DNA of 63,574 bases, the filler included, from Collodictyon triciliatum (taxonomy: Eukaryota), in assembly GCA_043381765.1 (NCBI GenBank). It is 9 parts of 9 records of this genome, joined end to end, with 100 filler letters (N's around TTAATTAATTAA, not from the genome) between each part and the next. Parts side by side here need not be neighbours in the genome. Positions count along the whole stretch, not along the records: positions 8,834 to 15,029 come from JBHJMP010003305.1; 8 more parts are not named here. One strand, written 5' to 3'. The translations under genes were made by a program, and so were the position numbers. A model generated the notes under the pieces. It saw only the letters and a list, made by a program, of their open reading frames with translations, was not told where the DNA came from and searched no databases. Positions 5,081-14,702 of this stretch are shown here, one piece after another (position 1 is the first letter of the stretch; every line of letters starts with the position of its first letter).

Positions 5081-8000
5081 ATGTCGAAGAAGATTGTGGG
5101 TATTTTTCTTGAAGTTTAAGCTGATTCCCTCTTCAATATATATCCGTATTTGCGATGTTTGAAGTTTTTTTTTTTATTGTACCTTCTTTCCCAAATACAC
5201 TATTTTCCCCCCATGGCTTTACTGCTCTTCATCTGAGCATATTTGTATCCCGTGCTTGAAAAACATCAGTCGGTCAAAGTGATCTCCAGAGATCCCCGTG
5301 AGTTCAGTCGCGAGAGAAAAAGCGACATTCAGCGTGTGGAAAGGAATCCCGACCCTGCTTTGCATCCTTTCGAGCGTGCCCGAGAATATATACGCACCTT
5401 GAATGCCGTCAAGTTAGACAAGATATTTTCGAAGCCTTTCCTCGGTTTGCTTTTATTTACTATCTTCTGAAACCACATTTTTTTTCTCCCTCGTCTCTTG
5501 AATATCATTTTTTCTTTCTGTAAACTTATACAACCACTTCATATTTGCTGAGACCATATCATATCTACAGCTTCATTGGAGGGCCACACAGACGGCATAT
5601 TCTGCATGGCACGCAACCCGAGACAACTCACAGGAATGCTTTCAGGCACCGTGAATGGAGGTTTGCTTCTTTTTTTTTTTTTTGTCTCCTTTGGCTCTAT
5701 TTGGGTCTTCATGAAGTATTAAAACAGTTATGATATGTACGTTGGTTGTTTCAAGATATTTAATCTTATGCTATAAAACATCTGTACACAGAAATTCGAT
5801 ACTGGGACGTGACTCTAAAGTAAACACTCTAGTTCGTCCTTTCTTAAAATGATGTTTTCTGGCGGATGCGTGAAAATGCTGTGATACCATTTTTACTATT
5901 TCTCTCCATATAGGCGCTGCACTCTATCCATTAGCAAAGGTCATGAGGGATATGTAAGGGGGATTGCAGCTCTGCCCACTGGTCGTCGATTCCTCACATG
6001 CGGGTTTGACAAGACCGTGAAATTGTGGAACTTGAAAAATAATACCAAATATGAAGACTTGGGGGACTATGGCGATGATAATCATGAAGAAGATACAATG
6101 GTTTGTTATGATTAAGATAAGAAGAAAAAAGAAAGAAGACATAGCCAATTATTATTTTTAAAATATTCTATAAAGTATATTCTTACTGACGCCAACATCG
6201 CCAAAATATGTCTCATCTGAAAAATTCAACCAAAGCTTCGTGGCACATACTTTGGCTCAGACCCGTTCTAGTGAGTATTCAATTAAAGATTCTGATGTGC
6301 CCTTTTGAAACTGAAATAAATCCTTTGGTATTTTTTTAACTTTTCTTTGTAAATAAAGTGGAGTCGATGTCCACCGAACAGATTCAATTTTTTGCACATC
6401 AAGTAATAAGATTGACATGTGGGACATTGGAAGGTTTGTGTTAAAACAAAGGAAGAAGGAGAAAAGGCACTAATAATTTTCCTTTTGTACTCACACGATT
6501 ACATATGAAACATGTAGATCCGAACCTACTCAAAGCTTTACGTGGGGTGCCGACTCTATCATATCAACAAAGTTTAACCAAGTAAGAATTTATTCAACCA
6601 AACTTCATTTTGTCCATCCTATTTCACCAGCAAACCATTCATTAGTTCCGTATGAACATTTTCTTTTCTTTTTAGTATGATAATGAATTTTTTTTTTTGG
6701 AAAAAAAGGTTGAACCAAATATCCTGAGCAGCTGCGGTTCTGACCGTTCAATCGTATTGTATGATATCCGTCTGAGCACGCCAATCCGCAAACTCATCAA
6801 TAATGTAAGTCATTTGGCCAAAATATCAATCACAAGCTATGGTTTAGCTACCAGCAACTTAGGTCTGAAAATTTCCTCTACATTTTACCAATCATTTAGA
6901 TGAGATCGAATGCAATCAGCTGGAATCCAATGGAGGCGTACAATTTTGTGGCTGTAAGCCTATCTCCGATGATATAACCTCACCATAATTTGCTCGTTTG
7001 ATGATGATTTTATCATTATTTATTTTATTAGCGGACCCATCTAAAAAATTTTTGGGATTAAATCTTGTAGTGGCAAGTTAAGCAATGCTATTAATTTGTA
7101 GGCAAATGAAGACCACAATATTTATGCATATGACATGCGATCCTTGAAAAAGGCACTTATGGTGTACACCGATCACGTCTCTGCTGTGTATGTCAATCTC
7201 TTTCGTGTATTCTTTGCAGGCTTCACATTATGGACAATGGAGCGCCTCGCCCTTTTTCACGAGCTCATTAATTTCATATTGATTATTTATTGATGTAAAT
7301 TAGACTGGATGTGGACTTTTCACCAACCGGACTAGAGTTTGCATCTGGCTCTTACGACCGTACCATTCGTGTCTATGATAAAAATGAACCCAGAAGCAAA
7401 GAAGTATACCATACGCAGCGCATGCAGCGGTATATATTCACCGCCACTAATATATGCAATATTAATTAATTTATGTTATTGTGAAATATATATATATATA
7501 TATTACATGTAAGAAATTTCAGAACATTTTTTATGTTGATTCTAATGGTCATCATGTTACAAACAGAATATTCTCGATCAAGTACAGCTCTGATGCAGAA
7601 TTTGTTCTCTCAGTATGAATTTTTTTCCATAATAGAACGAGAAAAGAAAAGAAAAAGGAAGTGTGTGCTCTACAGGCAAAGTTGGGCTTATGCACCCCTT
7701 TTTTCTTTTTTCTTTTTATCTTTTTTCTTTTTATCTTTTTACTTTTTACTTTTTACTTTTTACTTTTTACTTTTTACTTTTTACTTTTATTTACTCACCC
7801 ATTTTAGGGAAGCGATGACACAAACATTCGCATCTGGAAGTCTCACGCCTCCGCACCGCTAAAACCAGTAAGGAACATGTAGAAGAGTATTACATGAGTA
7901 TAAAATCCAAACTTGTGAATCTAAGCTAAAATAATCCCTATAAAAGTATATAATGCCCACCTAATGACCTGAATATATCTCCAAACTCACTTCATTTAGC

Positions 8001-8470
8001 TTCTGCGGAGAGAAAAGAAAAGTCTGAACTATTCCGAGAAATTAAAGGAGCGTTACGGCCACTTGCCTGACATTTATCGCATCAAGAAGTATGAGAACTT
8101 ATTCACAATCAAACTTCAAAGGATAAAACGTTTTGGCAAAGCATCCATATCAACTATTTAATACCTGCAACCATTCATGAATGCTCTATCTGCCAATCAA
8201 CAGACATCGCCATCTTCCCAAAGTCATTCTCAAGGCCTCAGAGAAAAAGAAGATTATGAAGGACTCGCAAAAGCGCAAGCTGGACAATCTCATCAAGCAC
8301 AGGTTCCTTCATCTCAAAAATATTCTTGCCATGTTGCGTCAGCATGTTTACCTAAATATTCTCATAAACCCGTTCAAACTGTCTATATCACACCTGTTGC
8401 TTGCAGCAAACCCGGCGCTGTCAAAGTTCCATCCAAAGCCAAGGCCGCAATTGTCCAGGAAATCGAATAA
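5081..8470 (+). CDS. DCAF13: DDB1- and CUL4-associated factor 13 / Sof1 (WD40, SSU processome); multi-exon, complete
   Basis: MSKKI|SVKVISRDPREFSRERKSDIQRVERNPDPALHPFERAREYIRTLNAVKLDKIFSKPF, SCGSDRSIVLYDIR, SNAISWNPMEAYNF, EVYHTQRMQR, GSDDTNIRIWK, HRHLPKVI; stop TAA 8468-8470. Confidence 0.95.
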
Positions 8471-8733
8471 AGCAAGAAAGATCGCAGTCGAGGTTTTACA
8501 ATTAATATGCAAGTTGTGTAGAACAGGGAAAGATTACATAGCTTGCACTCATAATTTTGTCTTTCTGTTTGTTGTTTTGATTCTCTATTCCTCCTTTTAA
8601 TTTGCGCAAGTTGGCGGGGATTACGGCTTTGTTTTTTGTTTTTTGTTTTTTGTTTTTTGTTTTTTGTTTTTTGTTTTTTGTTTTTTGTTTTTTGTTTTTT
8701 GTTTTTTTGTTTTTTGTTTTTTGTTTTTTTTTT

Positions 8734-8833: not shown

Positions 8834-8916
<83 letters not shown>

Positions 8917-9661
8917 TAATAAAAGGGAAGAAAAAAAGGCTTCGGGCTCAAGCCATCAACTCACGGGCAGCAAGATAGGTATGAATATAGTGCTCTGTAT
9001 TAGTGTCTCTGATTCATTTATCCGTTTTTTCTTTTCCTTTTCCCATTTTCTTTTTTCTCTTTTCTTTTTCTTTTTTCTTTTATCTATTCTTTTTCTTTTT
9101 TCTTTTTTTTTTCATCGGTCTCATTCGGCCTGTAAATGGATAAACTTCATTACAAAGGTTGTGACGAACTTGGTTTTATCCCTTTCAAGGAACAACACTT
9201 TATTTGCAACGAAAGTGCACCCATATATATAGATAGCAATTTATTGCACAAACAACCATCGAATTAAATCTGGATTGACGAAAGCAGGAGTATTGATGAA
9301 TCAAGAAAGAACTTGAATAATATAATAGTATAATTAGTATACATAGTAAGGTTAAATATACTTAAAAATCTCATTCTATTCCTGTAATTAATTTATATTT
9401 TATTTTCCATTATCGTATTAAAATCCAAAATTACAAACAAGCCGTTGCATTGGCCCAGACAGAAATCAGCCCTATAAACCTGCCACCAAGCATGCATATC
9501 AAAAAAGCATACTACCCACACTTGTGGCGGTAATCATATTGTTTGGGGCCGATATGTTGACTTTAAGTCGCCATGGCTATACGGCCGTCCTTTCGAACTC
9601 GCCGAATCGGCTCTCAGCGTTTTGTCTCAAATCACTCGAATAAAAAAAAAAACCTTGTGTA

Positions 9662-11843
9662 TCTGTTTACCACAATGCGTACATTTTGAGAGTTTTGGTA
9701 GATGCTTAGTTTTACATAAATTGATTTTATGCAGTTTTTTTTAAATTGACTGTTTTACTAAAGTTTTATCAAAATTGAAAACTCGGTACTTTTCTCAAGA
9801 AAAAAGTAAAACAAAGACTTTCAGATGAAGAAAATAAAACATCTTGAGTCTGGGAATATAAAGTCTGTAAAACCACACTATCGAAATGTGAAGCCATCTC
9901 TAAAGTCGATTGTAAAGAATGCGGATGACTATGACAAAATCAACGATACAGTTTTATTGTGTCATAATTTGGTTGGGGACACTTATCTGTTTGTAAGATG
10001 TTGCATATTGAAATCAAAACCACCAACAATCGATGAAATGTGTTTTTTTTTTCTTTATTCACTTTAAAGACAGTCGGAAAAGTTTCACAAGATAGACCCG
10101 CACGTTTAAAACATCCAGAAATGAGATGATATGATGATTTTTATCTCTATGATTTTCGATTCCTTTCGTCCCGAGAAGAACGCTTTCCGTTGGTTAAACT
10201 GTCTCATGCATTACCGTACTTAAGGAAGCAAATGTTAGCAGCTTATCAGAACACCACTAAGGAACATTTTGTAAAGAGGTTACTGCGCTTTATAAATCAA
10301 AAAGTTCCTAAATATGAGAATATAACGGATACTGTTAAAAAGGCAGAGTTACGAAAGTTAAAAAAAAAGCCATCTTCAAGAAATTCGAAATACCGGAACA
10401 ATATCAAGGATGGACTAAAATGCATCTGCATCATATAATTCCCAGCGATATTGTAAAAGGTATCGAATATGACGCCAAAGTCAATCCAAAGAAGTACATC
10501 CCATGTTTGATTCACATGAATCGCATTTTTGAGGACATTGTATCCAAAAGCTTCGACCAATCTCTATAGGAACTAACAATAAACCATGTCATATTACTCT
10601 AGATACTGCATGTTTGATATATCTATTAGTCTTATCTGGAAAGTCATTATTAATGAAGAACATATCAGGATACAAAGAGACACTATGGGAAAAGTTCTTT
10701 GAAATGGAGAAGAGGGTCTTCCATCAAACAGACTACAATTTTAAATACATGATACAAACAGACGGCTTGGCGGTGTCATGATTGTTTGAAAAGAAAGGTA
10801 TTTCAAATTCAAATTCCAAATACAATCAAAAAGAAACCAAGAATATGTCTACAAAGATGAACTTTCCGAAGAGCAGTTATCTTTATTAGCGAATTTTTTT
10901 TTTAGTTGGAGTGGACGCAGGCAAGTTTAATTTGGTTTACATGGTAGACGAGACAGGTAAGAAATTACGTTACACGACACACCAAACAAGACATGATAAC
11001 AAATCTCTTTAAAATCACAGAATACTCTTGTGCGAGAAAGAAAAGAAAAGTACAAGGCTTCAGGGATATGCATGGCAGCAGGTTTACAAAGAGCTTTTTC
11101 TTTTAGTCACCTGACTTTTGAAGAGAATCAGCAGGTTGAGACATCAAGAGCATCTTTAATCGATTTAGAGACATAACTGAATAAACATAATTCATGCACG
11201 GTCGATTATGAAAAAATTCGGAAATATGTATCTATGAAATTAAGATACCCGATAGAATTATCCAGATTTTATGAACACGTAACTTTTCGAAAGATGAGAT
11301 GGAGACAGTATGTTAATACAAAAAGTAGTGAAAGTTGTTTATGGACCGAATTGAAAAGACATTTGGCAAGGATGTTATACTGGCGTATGGAGACTGGAGC
11401 AGAAAATCTCCGATGAAACATTTTACGCCAACAATCGGAAGAGTATTACGAAAAAAATACTATCCAAACGTTTTGATACCAGTTATTGTAAATGGATTAA
11501 AACCCTCCAAGATGTGCTGTAGCTGCGAAAAAGAACTGGGATATATGACACTGAAAGGAAATACAAAAAAAAGTGTATAGTTGTCTCATGTGTAAAGAAT
11601 GCATTCGCTCAGGAAGCAAACAGAGTCTATTCTTGACAAGGGACTTTGACAGCGCTAAAAATATACTCAAGAAAGTTCTTTTACTCCTTCAAAATATGCT
11701 TACACCTTTCTTTTTTAAAAAATCGGCTGTCGGGTCTCTCCTGGCGGCCTTCACCACTACACAGTCTTTGAGAAAAAAGTGGTGAGACGTTGGGTACTAG
11801 CGGACTATATTTACCAATCGAAAGATTGGAGAACACGTCCTAG
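9662..11843 (+). mobile_element. Putative non-autonomous Helitron-like element carrying Fanzor1
   Basis: Right end: 16-nt hairpin (11814-29), 10-nt spacer, CTAG (11840-43) followed by T. Left end is a guess at A|TC 9661/9662; no Rep/helicase gene seen. Confidence 0.45.
9825..11785 (+). pseudogene. Fanzor1 (eukaryotic TnpB/Cas12-like RuvC endonuclease), intronless, multiply frameshifted
   Basis: Frame-hopping translation gives colinear Fanzor1-type blocks: YRNVKPSLKSIVK..INDTVLLCHNLVGDTYLFVR; LSHALPYL..YQNTTKEHFVKRLLRFIN; HIIPSDIVKGIEYDAKVNP; KPCHITLDTA; YMIQTDGLAVS*LF (10746-10787); RuvC-I VGVDAGK (D 10914-16) + KLRYT; FRKMRWRQY; LAYGDWS; RuvC-II VIVNG (expected E is G, 11494-96); zinc finger CCSC/CKEC; RuvC-III RDFDSAKNI (D 11642-44). 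At least 4 in-frame stops and several frameshifts. Confidence 0.9.
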
Positions 11844-11860
11844 TAAAACGAAAAGAAAAT
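11720..11860 (+). ncRNA. Candidate Fanzor omegaRNA scaffold plus 3' flanking guide segment
   Basis: Stems seen directly: TCACCACT(11751-58)/AGTGGTGA(11778-85); TACTA..GGAC(11795-805)/GTCC-TAGTA(11837-45) enclosing CCAATC-GAAA-GATTGG (11814-29). Position overlapping and following the ORF 3' end fits TnpB/Fanzor guide RNAs. Limits approximate. Confidence 0.55.
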
Positions 11861-12198
11861 CGAAGGTGCCACCAATGCCAGATGGAAACGCAATCTCCAA
11901 CCTTTTCCACATTTGATGAATCATCTTGGTAAAATGTCATTCCAGCCAATCCAGAATTCTGCACTTCCTATTCCAGGACAAGAAAGCGAGTTTCCACATT
12001 AGCTGGAAAGATAACTCATCACAACCAGCACAGCAAACATCTCTTCAAACCCCAAAATTCTCACAGAGCCCCAAATTCCCTCTCCCAGCCGCAAGGGAAC
12101 AAGTTAATAGAAACCACCCGGCTCCCGATATCAAACATCGGATGGATAAATACCCTAGCCACTCCATATATGTGCGACAGTTCTTTCAAGGCACCTCA

Positions 12199-12316
12199 CA
12201 AAAACAAAAACAAAAACAAAAACAAAAACAAAAACAAAAACAAAAACAAAAACAAAAACAAAAACAAAAACAAAAACAAAAACAAAAACAAAAACAAATA
12301 CAAATACAAAAAAAAC
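12199..12316. repeat. (CAAAAA)n microsatellite between Fanzor element and Ctr gene
   Basis: Direct reading. Confidence 0.9.
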
Positions 12317-12486
12317 AAAAAACCAGAAACCCAAGGACAACAGACATTTATGGGCTGTTAGTGTGGTCGTGTGTATTTATTGGAAGGAGAGAAACCCTCT
12401 TTTCCTCACGACAACTAACCAGACTCGATCGCCACCCCAAAGAACCGCCCCCTACAAAAACATAAGGAGACTCTCGCAAACGCACT

Positions 12487-13291
12487 ATGACTAACGCCAT
12501 CGATCTGGTCAGAACCGCAGCCATGAGCGCCGCACCCGCCCTGCTTCTCTGCCTCATCGCAGCCACTGTGCTCATCGCCGCCCGCGCCCATCCGCATCCG
12601 CACGCTGCCCAGTACGACCACAACCACAACCACAACCACTTCTATGGCCACAACCACAACCACAACCACAACCACAACCACAACCACAACAACCAACAAG
12701 CAGCTGCTCTCTCCAAACTCAATCCCGCCGAAACTATGCGCCTTGTCCAACGGGCCTTCCGTGTTGCCCACAGCATGGACTCCAACAAAGCGGCCTCATT
12801 GAACCCTGAGCAGGTTCCGTACTGTCATCACTAACACCATCATCATTATCATTATCATTATTATCACTATCATTATCATTATTATCATCGTCATCGTCAT
12901 CGTCATCATTATCCCTATCACTATCATCATCTCCCGCAACACTCACGCATCACAGATGTTTGAGCTCTTGCAAGAGTCTGCCTGCCAGCCCCACTGCCCA
13001 GTCTGCGGAATGACTGTGACCTCTGCAAAGAACCGCCTCCTCATCAAGAACAACCAGTACCTGTACTTCTGCTCAGGCGGCTGTCGCGATACTGCTCTCC
13101 AGACCCCGGATGCCTATGTGCTGGCAAACAACACTCTGCCCATCCCCGAGTGCTTCCTTGCCCAGGAGCATCACTGCCCAGTCTGCAACATGGACACGAC
13201 TGTCTCCCCCTCGACCAAGCACATCCAATGGGCTCACGGTTCGACTCCCACTCATATTACACTTTGTATCACCACCACCATCATCACCACC

Positions 13292-13322
<31 letters not shown>

Positions 13323-14702
13323 CCGTCATCATCACCACCATCATCACCATCATCACCACCTCAACCCAGGTCAGCGCTCCTTCGTCTGCGACATGTCGGT
13401 CGACCACAGCGAAAGCATGCGGCAGGAGCTTTCCCGCTACGTCAGCGCCCTCCCCAGCGAGTGCCAGTCCGTGCAGTGCCCCGTGTGCAAAATGTCCATC
13501 ACGCCGGGCCCGTCCTCGCCGACCGTCGAGTTTGCCAACGGCCAGGTCCTCAGCACGTGCTCCAGCGGGTGCCAGACAAAGCTGCTGCAGACGCCGGAGC
13601 GCTACCTGGACCCTGCCGCAGACGCCCAGCGCATCCCACCCTGTGACGACGGCAAGAACATCGCGTGCCCGGCGTGCAGCGACCGCTTCCTGGCCCGCCC
13701 CACCACCCCGGCCCTGGCGTTCCTGGGCGGCCAGCGCATCTACACGTGCTCCCAGGCGGACGGCTCCTCCGACCTGCCGCTCATCCAGGCCGACATCCAG
13801 CGCTTCATCACCACAGACATCCCACCCATCGACGATGACGACGATGACGGTGGCGACATCGACCCGCCCACAGGCTCGCGCTGCCCGGTCTGCGGCATGG
13901 ACCTGCCCTCCGACCCCGTCTACCAGGGCCTCAACTACGGCCAAGCCGTCTACTTCTGCTCCACAGGCTGCAAGGACAGCTTTGTGGCCGACCCCACCCG
14001 CTACTTTGGAACCAGCGGCGGCGGCGGAGCGGGCGGCCACAGCATGGCCATGTACTTTATCAGCTCCACAAGCGCGACCATTCTCTTCAAGGAGTGGGAA
14101 GTCTCCTCCGCCAGTGGCTATGCCGCCTCCGTCGTTGCCGTCTTTGCCATGTGTCTTGCCCACGAGCTCATCGCCGCCCTGCGCCATGTCCTCTACCTCA
14201 GGGTGAAGGAGAACAGGCCCCAGAAGATTGTCTATGCATCGACGGGTGCTCTTGGGTAAGCCTGATTTATGCTACGTGATATTTATTTTTCTATTCTTCT
14301 GTATCAAGTTGTGCGTTTCCAAACAGGCATGATTTCTTCTTCTTCTTTTTCTCTCCCAGCACCCAATCTTCCCTCCTTGACCTCCCTGGGAGGGCACAGC
14401 TGCACATTGGCACACCCGCATTCATTGGCTTCAATCTCTCGTTTATCTAACCCATCCATTCTGACATGTGTAGCACCCTGTCCTCGTTCATCGTGCACAA
14501 CGGCCGTGTCGTGCTCGCCATTCTCTACACAATCTCGTCCATCACGTCGTTGTGCCTAATGTTGATTGCCATGACTTTCAACACAGGACTCTTTCTTACC
14601 ATTGCCGCAGGCATGGGAACTGGCTGGTACCTCTTTGGCTTCAACCGAGGCCCGGCTTCCTCAGACACTTGCTGTGCTGATTACAACGAAGTCATTGGCT
14701 AA
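12487..14702 (+). CDS. Ctr/SLC31 copper transporter with signal peptide, His/Asn tract and five tandem YHS/TRASH-like domains (~574 aa)
   Basis: Exons 12487-12813, 12956-13238, 13370-14255, 14474-14702 (GT-AG, 1725 nt, open frame; alternative ATG 12523). Ctr hallmarks: HSMAMYF..ILFKEW before TM1, MLIAMTFN (MxxxM) in TM2, GMGTG (GxxxG) in TM3. Five CPxC repeats, e.g. CPVCGM..YFCSTGCKDSFVADPTRYF. Confidence 0.88.

Follow-up and report, generated by a model that had tools for sequence, protein, structure and literature searches.

A Fanzor1 pseudogene in a repeated element

The window, by which we mean the whole stretch of DNA that was analysed (63,574 nucleotides, filler included, from Collodictyon triciliatum assembly GCA_043381765.1), contains a broken gene followed by a folded region (11720-11865) that the original prediction had proposed as the guide RNA (omegaRNA) scaffold of a Fanzor nuclease. 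The features at this locus are the following.

8834-11843, plus strand: one decayed member of a family of ~3.5-kb Fanzor1-bearing elements, non-autonomous and of Helitron type by our reading (83.7% match to full copy L123)
8934-9040, plus strand: segment that lies directly 3′ of a RepHel-derived piece in long copies (adjacency on one strand in L345, L353, L380, and L390)
9825-11773, plus strand: Fanzor1 pseudogene with several frameshifts and stops (tblastn of P0001)
11725-11749, plus strand: G.U-containing 10-bp hairpin within the last codons, likely the first omegaRNA stem-loop (fold and copy comparison)
11751-11785, plus strand: 8-bp stem with an inner hairpin (11760-11772) and an A-rich internal loop (fold and copy comparison)
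11795-11845, plus strand: closing stem TACTAG/CTAGTA, which includes the first two flanking bases (family-majority fold)
11802-11840, plus strand: 4-bp GGAC/GTCC stem, peculiar to this copy (none of 44 others has it intact)
11812-11831, plus strand: terminal palindrome with GAAA loop, Helitron-type terminator and probable last omegaRNA stem (family alignment and fold)
11840-11844, plus strand: CTAG terminus, then the target T (comparison of copy ends)
11844-11860, plus strand: flank that would supply the guide, with a putative start at 11844, 11845, or 11846

When the window was searched by tblastn with P0001, an intact 648-aa metagenomic protein, residues 1-643 were covered in three frames with stops, and the identity of P0001 to a family frame was 59%. 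The PDB matches of the family frame were only Fanzor1 structures (PpFz1 at 7e-10, SpuFz1 at 1e-7, and GtFz1 at 8e-4). The motif D-X(125,275)-TS-XX-C4 zinc finger-X(5,50)-RD was found in family frames and in P0001; in the window copy, this Fanzor1 motif is split over frames and the region of the RuvC glutamate is disrupted. The frame at 10533-10778 contains QTDG, and a TDG motif is named for Fanzor1 in PMC10711439. Pfam gave no match above cut-off, either for window fragments or for P0001, and a search of viral contigs with P0001 confirmed no relative. Judging from these alignments and motifs, the gene is a Fanzor1 that has become a pseudogene, which bears out the Fanzor identity proposed originally. 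The stop codon of the family is located at 11771-11773, inside the structured region, so that ~16 codons overlap with this region.

The genome itself is a 75-Mb eukaryotic assembly of 14,576 contigs. Three queries taken from the window gave 331, 271, and 120 candidates in it; the 331 came from positions 11600-11900, and 40 of these, besides the window itself, scored at 82-87%. The comparison with full copy L123 listed above covered positions 8845-11845. Contigs built from a small share of one sequencing run contained other copies only. Full copies are mostly 3.4-3.8 kb long; the first ~600 bases of the element at our locus fall in the assembly gap before 8834, and this upstream part was seen in other copies. 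By similarity, the locus is one among several hundred decayed copies of a Fanzor1 element. Two protein searches of the same genome, covering the best 150 of 435 and the best 150 of 582 candidates, yielded no intact Fanzor frame (~600-700 aa), the longest open frames being 318 and 427 aa.

As the original prediction had expected for the end of the scaffold, similarity among copies stops sharply, at CTAG-T (11843/44), beyond which the flanks are unrelated. Ninety-eight distinct ends were gathered, of which 10 were dropped and 88 with a clear terminus were scored. CTAG was found in 59 of the 88 and CTRR in 65, counts that lean high because the motif used to locate the ends contained CTAG, and the next base was T in 82.

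Structure of the 3′ end

The 146-nt region has a predicted folding energy of -48.5 kcal/mol (z -4.39), a stability equalled in 0 of 200 shuffles, indicating that it is structured, as had been held. For 11720-11845, the plus strand gave a z of -3.6 compared to -2.2 for the minus strand, and this copy ranked second in stability among 45 copies folded. The helices described previously are all present at the positions given for them: the 8-bp stem in which TCACCACT (11751-11758) pairs with AGTGGTGA (11778-11785), the nested stem of TACTA (11795-11799) with TAGTA (11841-11845) and GGAC (11802-11805) with GTCC (11837-11840), and the CCAATC-GAAA-GATTGG tetraloop hairpin at 11814-11829. The strongest helix of the region, 10 bp between 11725-11734 and 11740-11749 with G.U pairs included, was absent from that description. 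The terminal palindrome at 11812-11831 comprises 8 bp in the family, of which 6 bp are left in this copy, and ends 12 nt before 11843. An Rfam search of window positions 9300-12200, with E up to 5, gave 0 hits.

Folded as the plus strand, the family-majority sequence has a z of -6.1 (minus strand, -3.6) and forms the 10-bp hairpin, the 8-bp stem with its inner hairpin, and the closing TACTAG/CTAGTA stem over the GAAA hairpin. Of 45 copy ends, 24 had a z below -2, compared to 3 of the 45 gene segments that served as controls. This difference, together with the strong family-majority fold, points to a structure that would have been selected in the active ancestor.

Decay of the structure among copies

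To describe the state of the helices elsewhere, 44 other copies were used, i.e., 50 copies collected without bias as to their ends, minus 6 that were misaligned or near-duplicate. The 10-bp hairpin was paired in 93% of cells and fully intact in 23 of the 44, the 8-bp stem in 91% (20 intact), and the closing TACTAG/CTAGTA stem in 83% (18 intact). None of the 44 had GGAC/GTCC intact, and 41.7% of its cells were paired in the comparison with shuffled copies described next, thus the nested stem exists in the window copy as predicted, but its GGAC/GTCC part is no family feature. Covariation, suggested earlier as a check, gave no signal among the copies: the proposed structure was paired at 78.3% compared to 78.4% after shuffling (29 copies), and each helix paired at independent expectation in the 44 copies.

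Within the family, the gene has diverged by 7.3% and the segment 11724-11812 by 8.7%, whereas the last 31 nt reach 15.6% (p 3e-7 compared to the gene). Of the 124 positions compared in 11722-11845, the window copy itself departs from the family majority at 18 (14.5%), and in the gene at 48 of 557 and 38 of 510 (8.6% and 7.5%), which contradicts the claim that the pairings remained intact despite the decay of the reading frame. In the copies, the structure decays neutrally, and the scaffold is no better kept than the dead gene. In 5 duplicated pairs, the ends did not differ significantly from their flanks (48/620 versus 23/406 differences, p 0.21), and the comparison of ends with the upstream 275 nt gave a p of 0.006. 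With 3 pairs, the contrast had looked stronger than with these 5.

Loop inversion and linkage between sites

Exact matches to the GAAA hairpin were found 11 times in the genome, and exact matches to the hairpin with an inverted loop 14 times, one of the latter being the opposite strand of a perfect GAAA copy. Among 50 copies chosen irrespective of their loop, the GAAA loop was inverted in 10, and L116 and L318 have the same flank with opposite loop orientations. According to PMC8794818, template switching is known to cause loop inversion and makes hairpins mutation hot spots, and in rRNA loops GAAA outnumbers UUUC 99-fold. Since the loop flips freely, nothing has kept the tetraloop in place since insertion. 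The idea that the TTTC-loop copies form one subfamily was rejected, as 17 changes were counted compared to 18.0 +/- 1.3 after shuffling and no linked site was found; the tree of 85 copies is star-like, and the rejection is only as strong as such a tree permits.

Linkage was analysed in 73 of the 85 aligned copies, 12 having been dropped. A second allele occurred in at least 20 copies at 35 of 1194 sites, many of the changes being transversions, and r2 among these 35 sites was at the permutation level beyond 5 nt. This result has no control family, since the repeat picked as control is itself a piece of this element. The loss of linkage could come from frequent gene conversion between copies or from hot spots at particular sites. 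We also observed that duplicated loci differ in patches.

A Helitron-like vehicle

A Helitron gene is present in the genome at locus L144, where the STPR, Helitron_like_N (Rep), and PIF1 domains share a single open frame; this frame spans at least 1194 codons, part of them given as N. At a fixed place, the long Fanzor copies contain a ~750-bp segment that matches the 5′ coding DNA of L144 at 70-79% (E down to 4e-43), and a reversed-protein control gave 0 hits. Among the 11 loci examined, 7 distinct contigs have this RepHel piece immediately 5′ of window-like sequence, and in L353 a single contig runs from the piece through to window position 11829. BLASTP gave no match between the window's own letters and RepHel, and the element ends had no direct match in the Rep and PIF1 loci. 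The RepHel element looks intact, but its 3′ end is absent from the assembly.

Short sister elements that lack Fanzor have the 5′ part in common with the Fanzor elements, and end in another hairpin followed by CTAG-T at similar spacing. The sister hairpin end has 16 exact matches, with CTAG in 11 and T next in 14, and several of these are joined to the common 5′ part without Fanzor. Fanzor sequence comes right after the sister end in L410, L416, and L418, an arrangement that read-through capture would leave. The sister hairpin contains GCGAAGC, which we take to be an unusually stable DNA mini-hairpin.

In L360 and L134, the element can be seen to start with 5′-TC, and L420 and L423 contain head-to-tail CTAG-TC joints. 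The base before TC is T rather than A in the clear cases, and the 5′ junctions are mostly degenerate, with TCTA in 1 of 20; the Helitron target dinucleotides named in PMC10288648 are AT or TT. Neither the 14-16 full copies nor the 15 truncated ones showed significant target duplication: own junction pairs compared to permuted pairs gave p values of 0.64, 0.08, and 0.44, the smallest over 32 window settings being 0.055. Nevertheless, 3-5 of the 14-16 full copies match at 9-10 of 12 bases at both junctions, which is duplication-like. By eye, no terminal inverted repeats were found, nor were asymmetric terminal inverted repeats or a 5′ hairpin of the Helitron2 type seen in the junction lists, and the DNA searched contained no empty site. 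From the RepHel match of the long copies and the Fanzor-less sisters, the vehicle of Fanzor1 looks like a non-autonomous Helitron1. Because the hairpin with CTAG-T is a Helitron-like end, the terminal hairpin is probably both an omegaRNA stem and a rolling-circle terminator. Its probable role, with CTAG-T, as a DNA end signal of the vehicle was missed in the original prediction.

Flanking DNA and the position of the guide

If insertion occurs before a host T, the first variable base is 11845. The closing stem pairs 11844-11845, the first two bases of the guide as originally proposed, and the scaffolds of Fanzor and IS607 RNAs are described as including flank bases that are fixed (PMC10711439). 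Given this tendency, the start of the guide is uncertain by 1-2 bases. Hence, the proposed scaffold end agrees with the element end at 11843, and the guide may start at 11844, 11845, or 11846, the proposed start being the earliest of these.

The first 12 flank bases are weakly A/T-biased, with ATAA within 16 nt in 51 of 88 copies compared to 8-12 in control windows. ATAA was also found in the flank of 9 of 16 Fanzor-less sisters, thus the bias belongs to the vehicle rather than to Fanzor targeting. The first 12 nt of the window flank had no second match in the DNA searched. We also considered daughter copies that inherit the 12-15-nt flank of their parent, as in RNA-guided insertion, and rejected them: with at least 12 of 14 matches, and after removal of pairs sharing 60 nt, 3 pairs were found compared to 2.1 expected. 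The flank bias resembles the element's own 5′ terminus, and a degenerate 12-nt motif is present at both junctions.

Distant relatives

In metagenome and viral collections, 160 loci encode relatives at 36-47% identity. Their 3′ ends covary strongly, as 23 representative ends contained 37 compensated cells, a result reached in 0 of 500 shuffles. A covariance model built from these 23 distant Fanzor1 ends missed our end in the window and in 30 loci. A sequence profile of the distant ends had its best match at the expected place in 9 of the 80 copies with a match, and these 9 include 4 of the 5 top scores, a weak hint. With the model missing the end and the profile giving no more than this hint, RNA homology to the distant relatives is unestablished. 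Although some of its residues differ, the P0001 tail is compatible with a coding sequence that forms all 10 bp of the first hairpin, as are 6% of 400 random tails; this compatibility lends the first stem modest support. Some short motifs are common, by eye, to the distant ends and this end.

Origin of the folded end

We consider it probable that a non-autonomous element of Helitron1 type captured Fanzor1 and that the stretch represents the right end of one of its dead copies, with one hairpin probably serving twice, and the folded stretch is probably a relic guide-RNA template. By analogy with known Fanzor1 systems, the active ancestor would have produced a ~120-nt transcript starting at ~11724 and running through the element end into ~15 nt of flank, which would form three stem-loops and bind Fanzor1. 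The nuclease would then be guided to the element-free site, and its cut repaired off the filled copy. As suggested by Helitron work, the last hairpin would, as single-stranded DNA, signal RepHel, acting in trans, to stop at CTAG. Today the copy is a relic, with a broken gene, decaying stems, and no partner protein seen. Counted against this explanation were the lack of covariation in the family, the misses of the covariance model and the profile, the missing 3′ end of the RepHel element, the T before TC, the degenerate 5′ junctions, and the few copies with duplication-like junctions. A further-reaching version, which we regard as unlikely, is that Fanzor1 spread to several hundred copies on a canonical Helitron1 with a dual-use hairpin, and that RNA-guided breaks drove repair between the dispersed copies. 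If true, this would account for the linkage equilibrium of the 35 high-frequency variants along the element, and explain why both loop orientations occur without a clade, and why the termini are very unstable.

The structure could instead be a DNA end signal only, combined with chance pairing in the last codons, the omegaRNA being lost or located elsewhere. The sisters, which end in a different hairpin at the same spacing before CTAG-T, fit with this, as do the freely flipping loop, the missing covariation, and the failure of the relatives' model at this end. However, an end signal does not account for the upstream 10-bp hairpin, which requires G.U pairs and is best on the sense strand, or for two further stems between gene and terminator. 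In addition, the P0001 tail is compatible with the first stem (6% by chance), and an RNA has been reported here in every tested Fanzor1 (PMC10432273, PMC10530073), which makes this explanation quite unlikely. Another reading retains the RNA but places the end of the scaffold where the GAAA hairpin closes (~11831), and the guide would then consist mostly of the element's last 12 nt. Self-cutting close to the element end would make the terminus unstable, including the 15.6% divergence of the last 31 nt compared to 7.3% in the gene (p 3e-7), and TTTAC, which opens the relatives' closing stem at the element end, opens the GAAA hairpin here. Yet homology to the TTTAC-bearing relatives is unestablished, the family majority has a longer closing stem that reaches 11845, hairpins mutate by template switching anyway (PMC8794818), and no precedent for a fixed guide was found; we judge this reading very unlikely.

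Regarding the vehicle, a cut-and-paste or unclassified element with 9-12-bp duplications, comparable to MCi-2, would make the Helitron letters coincidental or nested. The 3′ flank bias extends over exactly 12 nt (ATAA in 51/88 versus 8-12 in controls), L122, L127, L130, and L360 have near-matching junctions, and distant relatives possess inverted-repeat-like ends with TA. Against this, junction similarity was no better than in permuted pairs (p 0.64, 0.08, 0.44), no inverted ends were found by inspection, the RepHel piece occupies one fixed place in one orientation, and Fanzor-less sisters have the same end and flank bias (ATAA in 9/16), so that such a vehicle is quite improbable. Finally, the original prediction suggested that the RNA might still load onto a Fanzor supplied in trans. 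Such a live "ghost" guide locus would agree with the stability of this copy, the second highest of 45, and with the functional ghost omegaRNAs described for SpuFz1 (PMC10432273), and an intact gene could be missing from an assembly that is fragmented into 14,576 contigs. Since the best 150 of 435 and best 150 of 582 candidates included no intact Fanzor, loading in trans is unlikely, and the scaffold has decayed at least as much as the gene, both in the family and in this copy; we consider a live locus extremely improbable.

Comparison with known systems

A structured RNA region is expected at the right end of a Fanzor1 element and this one is dead, thus the stems flagged originally are unsurprising. 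As in the GtFz1, SpuFz1, and PpFz1 omegaRNAs described in PMC10432273 and PMC11423790, the right end appears as a structured template with several stem-loops and a flank guide, and the overlap with the last codons is alike (17 aa for GtFz1, ~16 here). Unlike at these loci, the gene is dead in every copy seen and inverted repeats were not seen by eye, and, unlike in these RNAs, the last stem would double as a Helitron-type terminator, with 0 hits in Rfam.

CRe-1, -2, and -3 of Chlamydomonas are described as Fanzor1 in non-autonomous Helitron2 (PMC3627910); the supplement table of this paper names Helitron three times, the rows shown being CRe-1 and CRe-2. As in these elements, Fanzor1 is here the sole gene of a high-copy Helitron-type element, with 3′ ends that are intact and over-represented (PMC3627910) and a 3′ RNA region (PMC10530073). 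In contrast to CRe, the ends here are Helitron1-like (TC where legible, a single 3′ hairpin, and CTAG-T), there are no asymmetric inverted repeats by eye and no consistent target duplication, and the gene is intronless. In Helraiser, a 19-bp palindrome located 11 nt before CTAG is a terminator that can be bypassed (PMC4778049). Similarly, a ~20-nt palindrome is found here 12 nt before the CTAG end, followed by the host T, and L410, L416, and L418 resemble its read-through past the hairpin to a new end. Unlike Helraiser as presented in that paper, our element has only a short RepHel remnant, carries Fanzor1, has T before the 5′ TC in clear cases, and shows the degenerate 12-nt motif at both junctions. 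MCi-2 and CMe-1A, two unclassified Fanzor1 elements in PMC3627910, are similar in having a fuzzy 5′ end and many old copies, and they have no inverted ends, none having been seen here by eye. The same source gives clear 11-12-bp duplications for MCi-2, which are not significant here, and ~150 copies at ~80% to consensus for CMe-1A, which retains some intact genes whereas none was seen here.

The vehicle is more useful than the stems, since the Helitron cases that we found described in detail are Helitron2 (PMC3627910). Surveys list Fanzor-Helitron associations without subtype (PMC10530073, PMC13565253), and why a copy-and-paste Helitron keeps an RNA-guided nuclease is an open question (PMC13565253). 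The literature searched described neither a Fanzor carrier with TC...CTAG ends nor a hairpin that is common to terminator and guide RNA; such a description may exist in Repbase or subscription papers. With a putative Helitron1-type carrier in hundreds of copies, its sisters, a candidate RepHel partner, and an intact relative at 59% identity, a dual-use hairpin becomes testable. Helitrons with a 5′ tetranucleotide microsatellite are described in PMC4344730, and such a microsatellite occurs here too.

Variation among copies of the Fanzor element

The copies of the decayed Fanzor1 carrier (hereafter the Fanzor element) look like fine mosaics. In the family alignment covering window 10640-11843, a second allele was present in at least 20 of the 73 copies at 35 of the 1194 sites, and within these 73 copies, which represent a single repeat family, linkage between variant sites was absent beyond 5 nt. 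The loop of the last hairpin, at window 11820-11823 and the corresponding positions in the copies, occurred as GAAA and in the inverted form at a ratio of about 4:1, and the copies with an inverted loop do not form a clade.

The A/T bias in the 3' flanks of the window element (11844-11855) and its copies spans exactly 12 nt, and the pattern is similar to the 5' terminus of the Fanzor element itself. The same 12-nt A/T-biased flank was found in the Fanzor-less sisters, the short elements that carry the 5' part of the Fanzor element and a different hairpin before CTAG|T. Shortened copies were also seen. Three loci of approximately 1.7 kb each (L337, L352, and L360) have kept both ends and carry an internal deletion, and in three others (L313, L315, and L317) just the last 39-80 nt of the element are left, with a precise 3' end.

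Related Helitrons and a candidate autonomous partner

A locus in the same genome, L144, contains a Helitron Rep-helicase (RepHel) frame that is open for at least 1194 codons (L144:627-4208, G000:C6377) and extends off the contig, and we consider this locus a candidate for the autonomous partner of the Fanzor element. A deleted relative, L425 (C1887), shows 97% amino-acid identity over a short helicase piece. Short non-autonomous Helitron families (L409-L424, L137, L342, L343, L392, and L396) have a 3' end composed of a GCGAAGC hairpin and CTAG|T; some of these carry the 5' part of the Fanzor element, and some are arranged head to tail.

Fanzor1 relatives outside this genome

The metagenomic protein P0001 is an intact Fanzor1 of 648 aa with 59% identity to the Fanzor family of the window, and the two have in common an insertion of ~36 aa that is missing from four other relatives. 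Among 160 loci from metagenomes and giant viruses (L147-L306), in which the Fanzor1 genes are mostly full-length, their own 3' RNA fold showed strong covariation. In supplement file 8 of PMC3627910, the record directly preceding MDe-7 likewise terminates in CTAGTA, and this may be an end of a similar kind.

Neighboring host genes

The host gene adjoining the Fanzor element (window 12466-14702) contains repeated Cys-rich motifs and His-rich tracts, and its C-terminal part is, we presume, reminiscent of a copper transporter. Another host gene (window 7102-8600), upstream of the assembly gap before 8834, is split by introns, and its pieces presumably resemble a WD40 ribosome-biogenesis factor.
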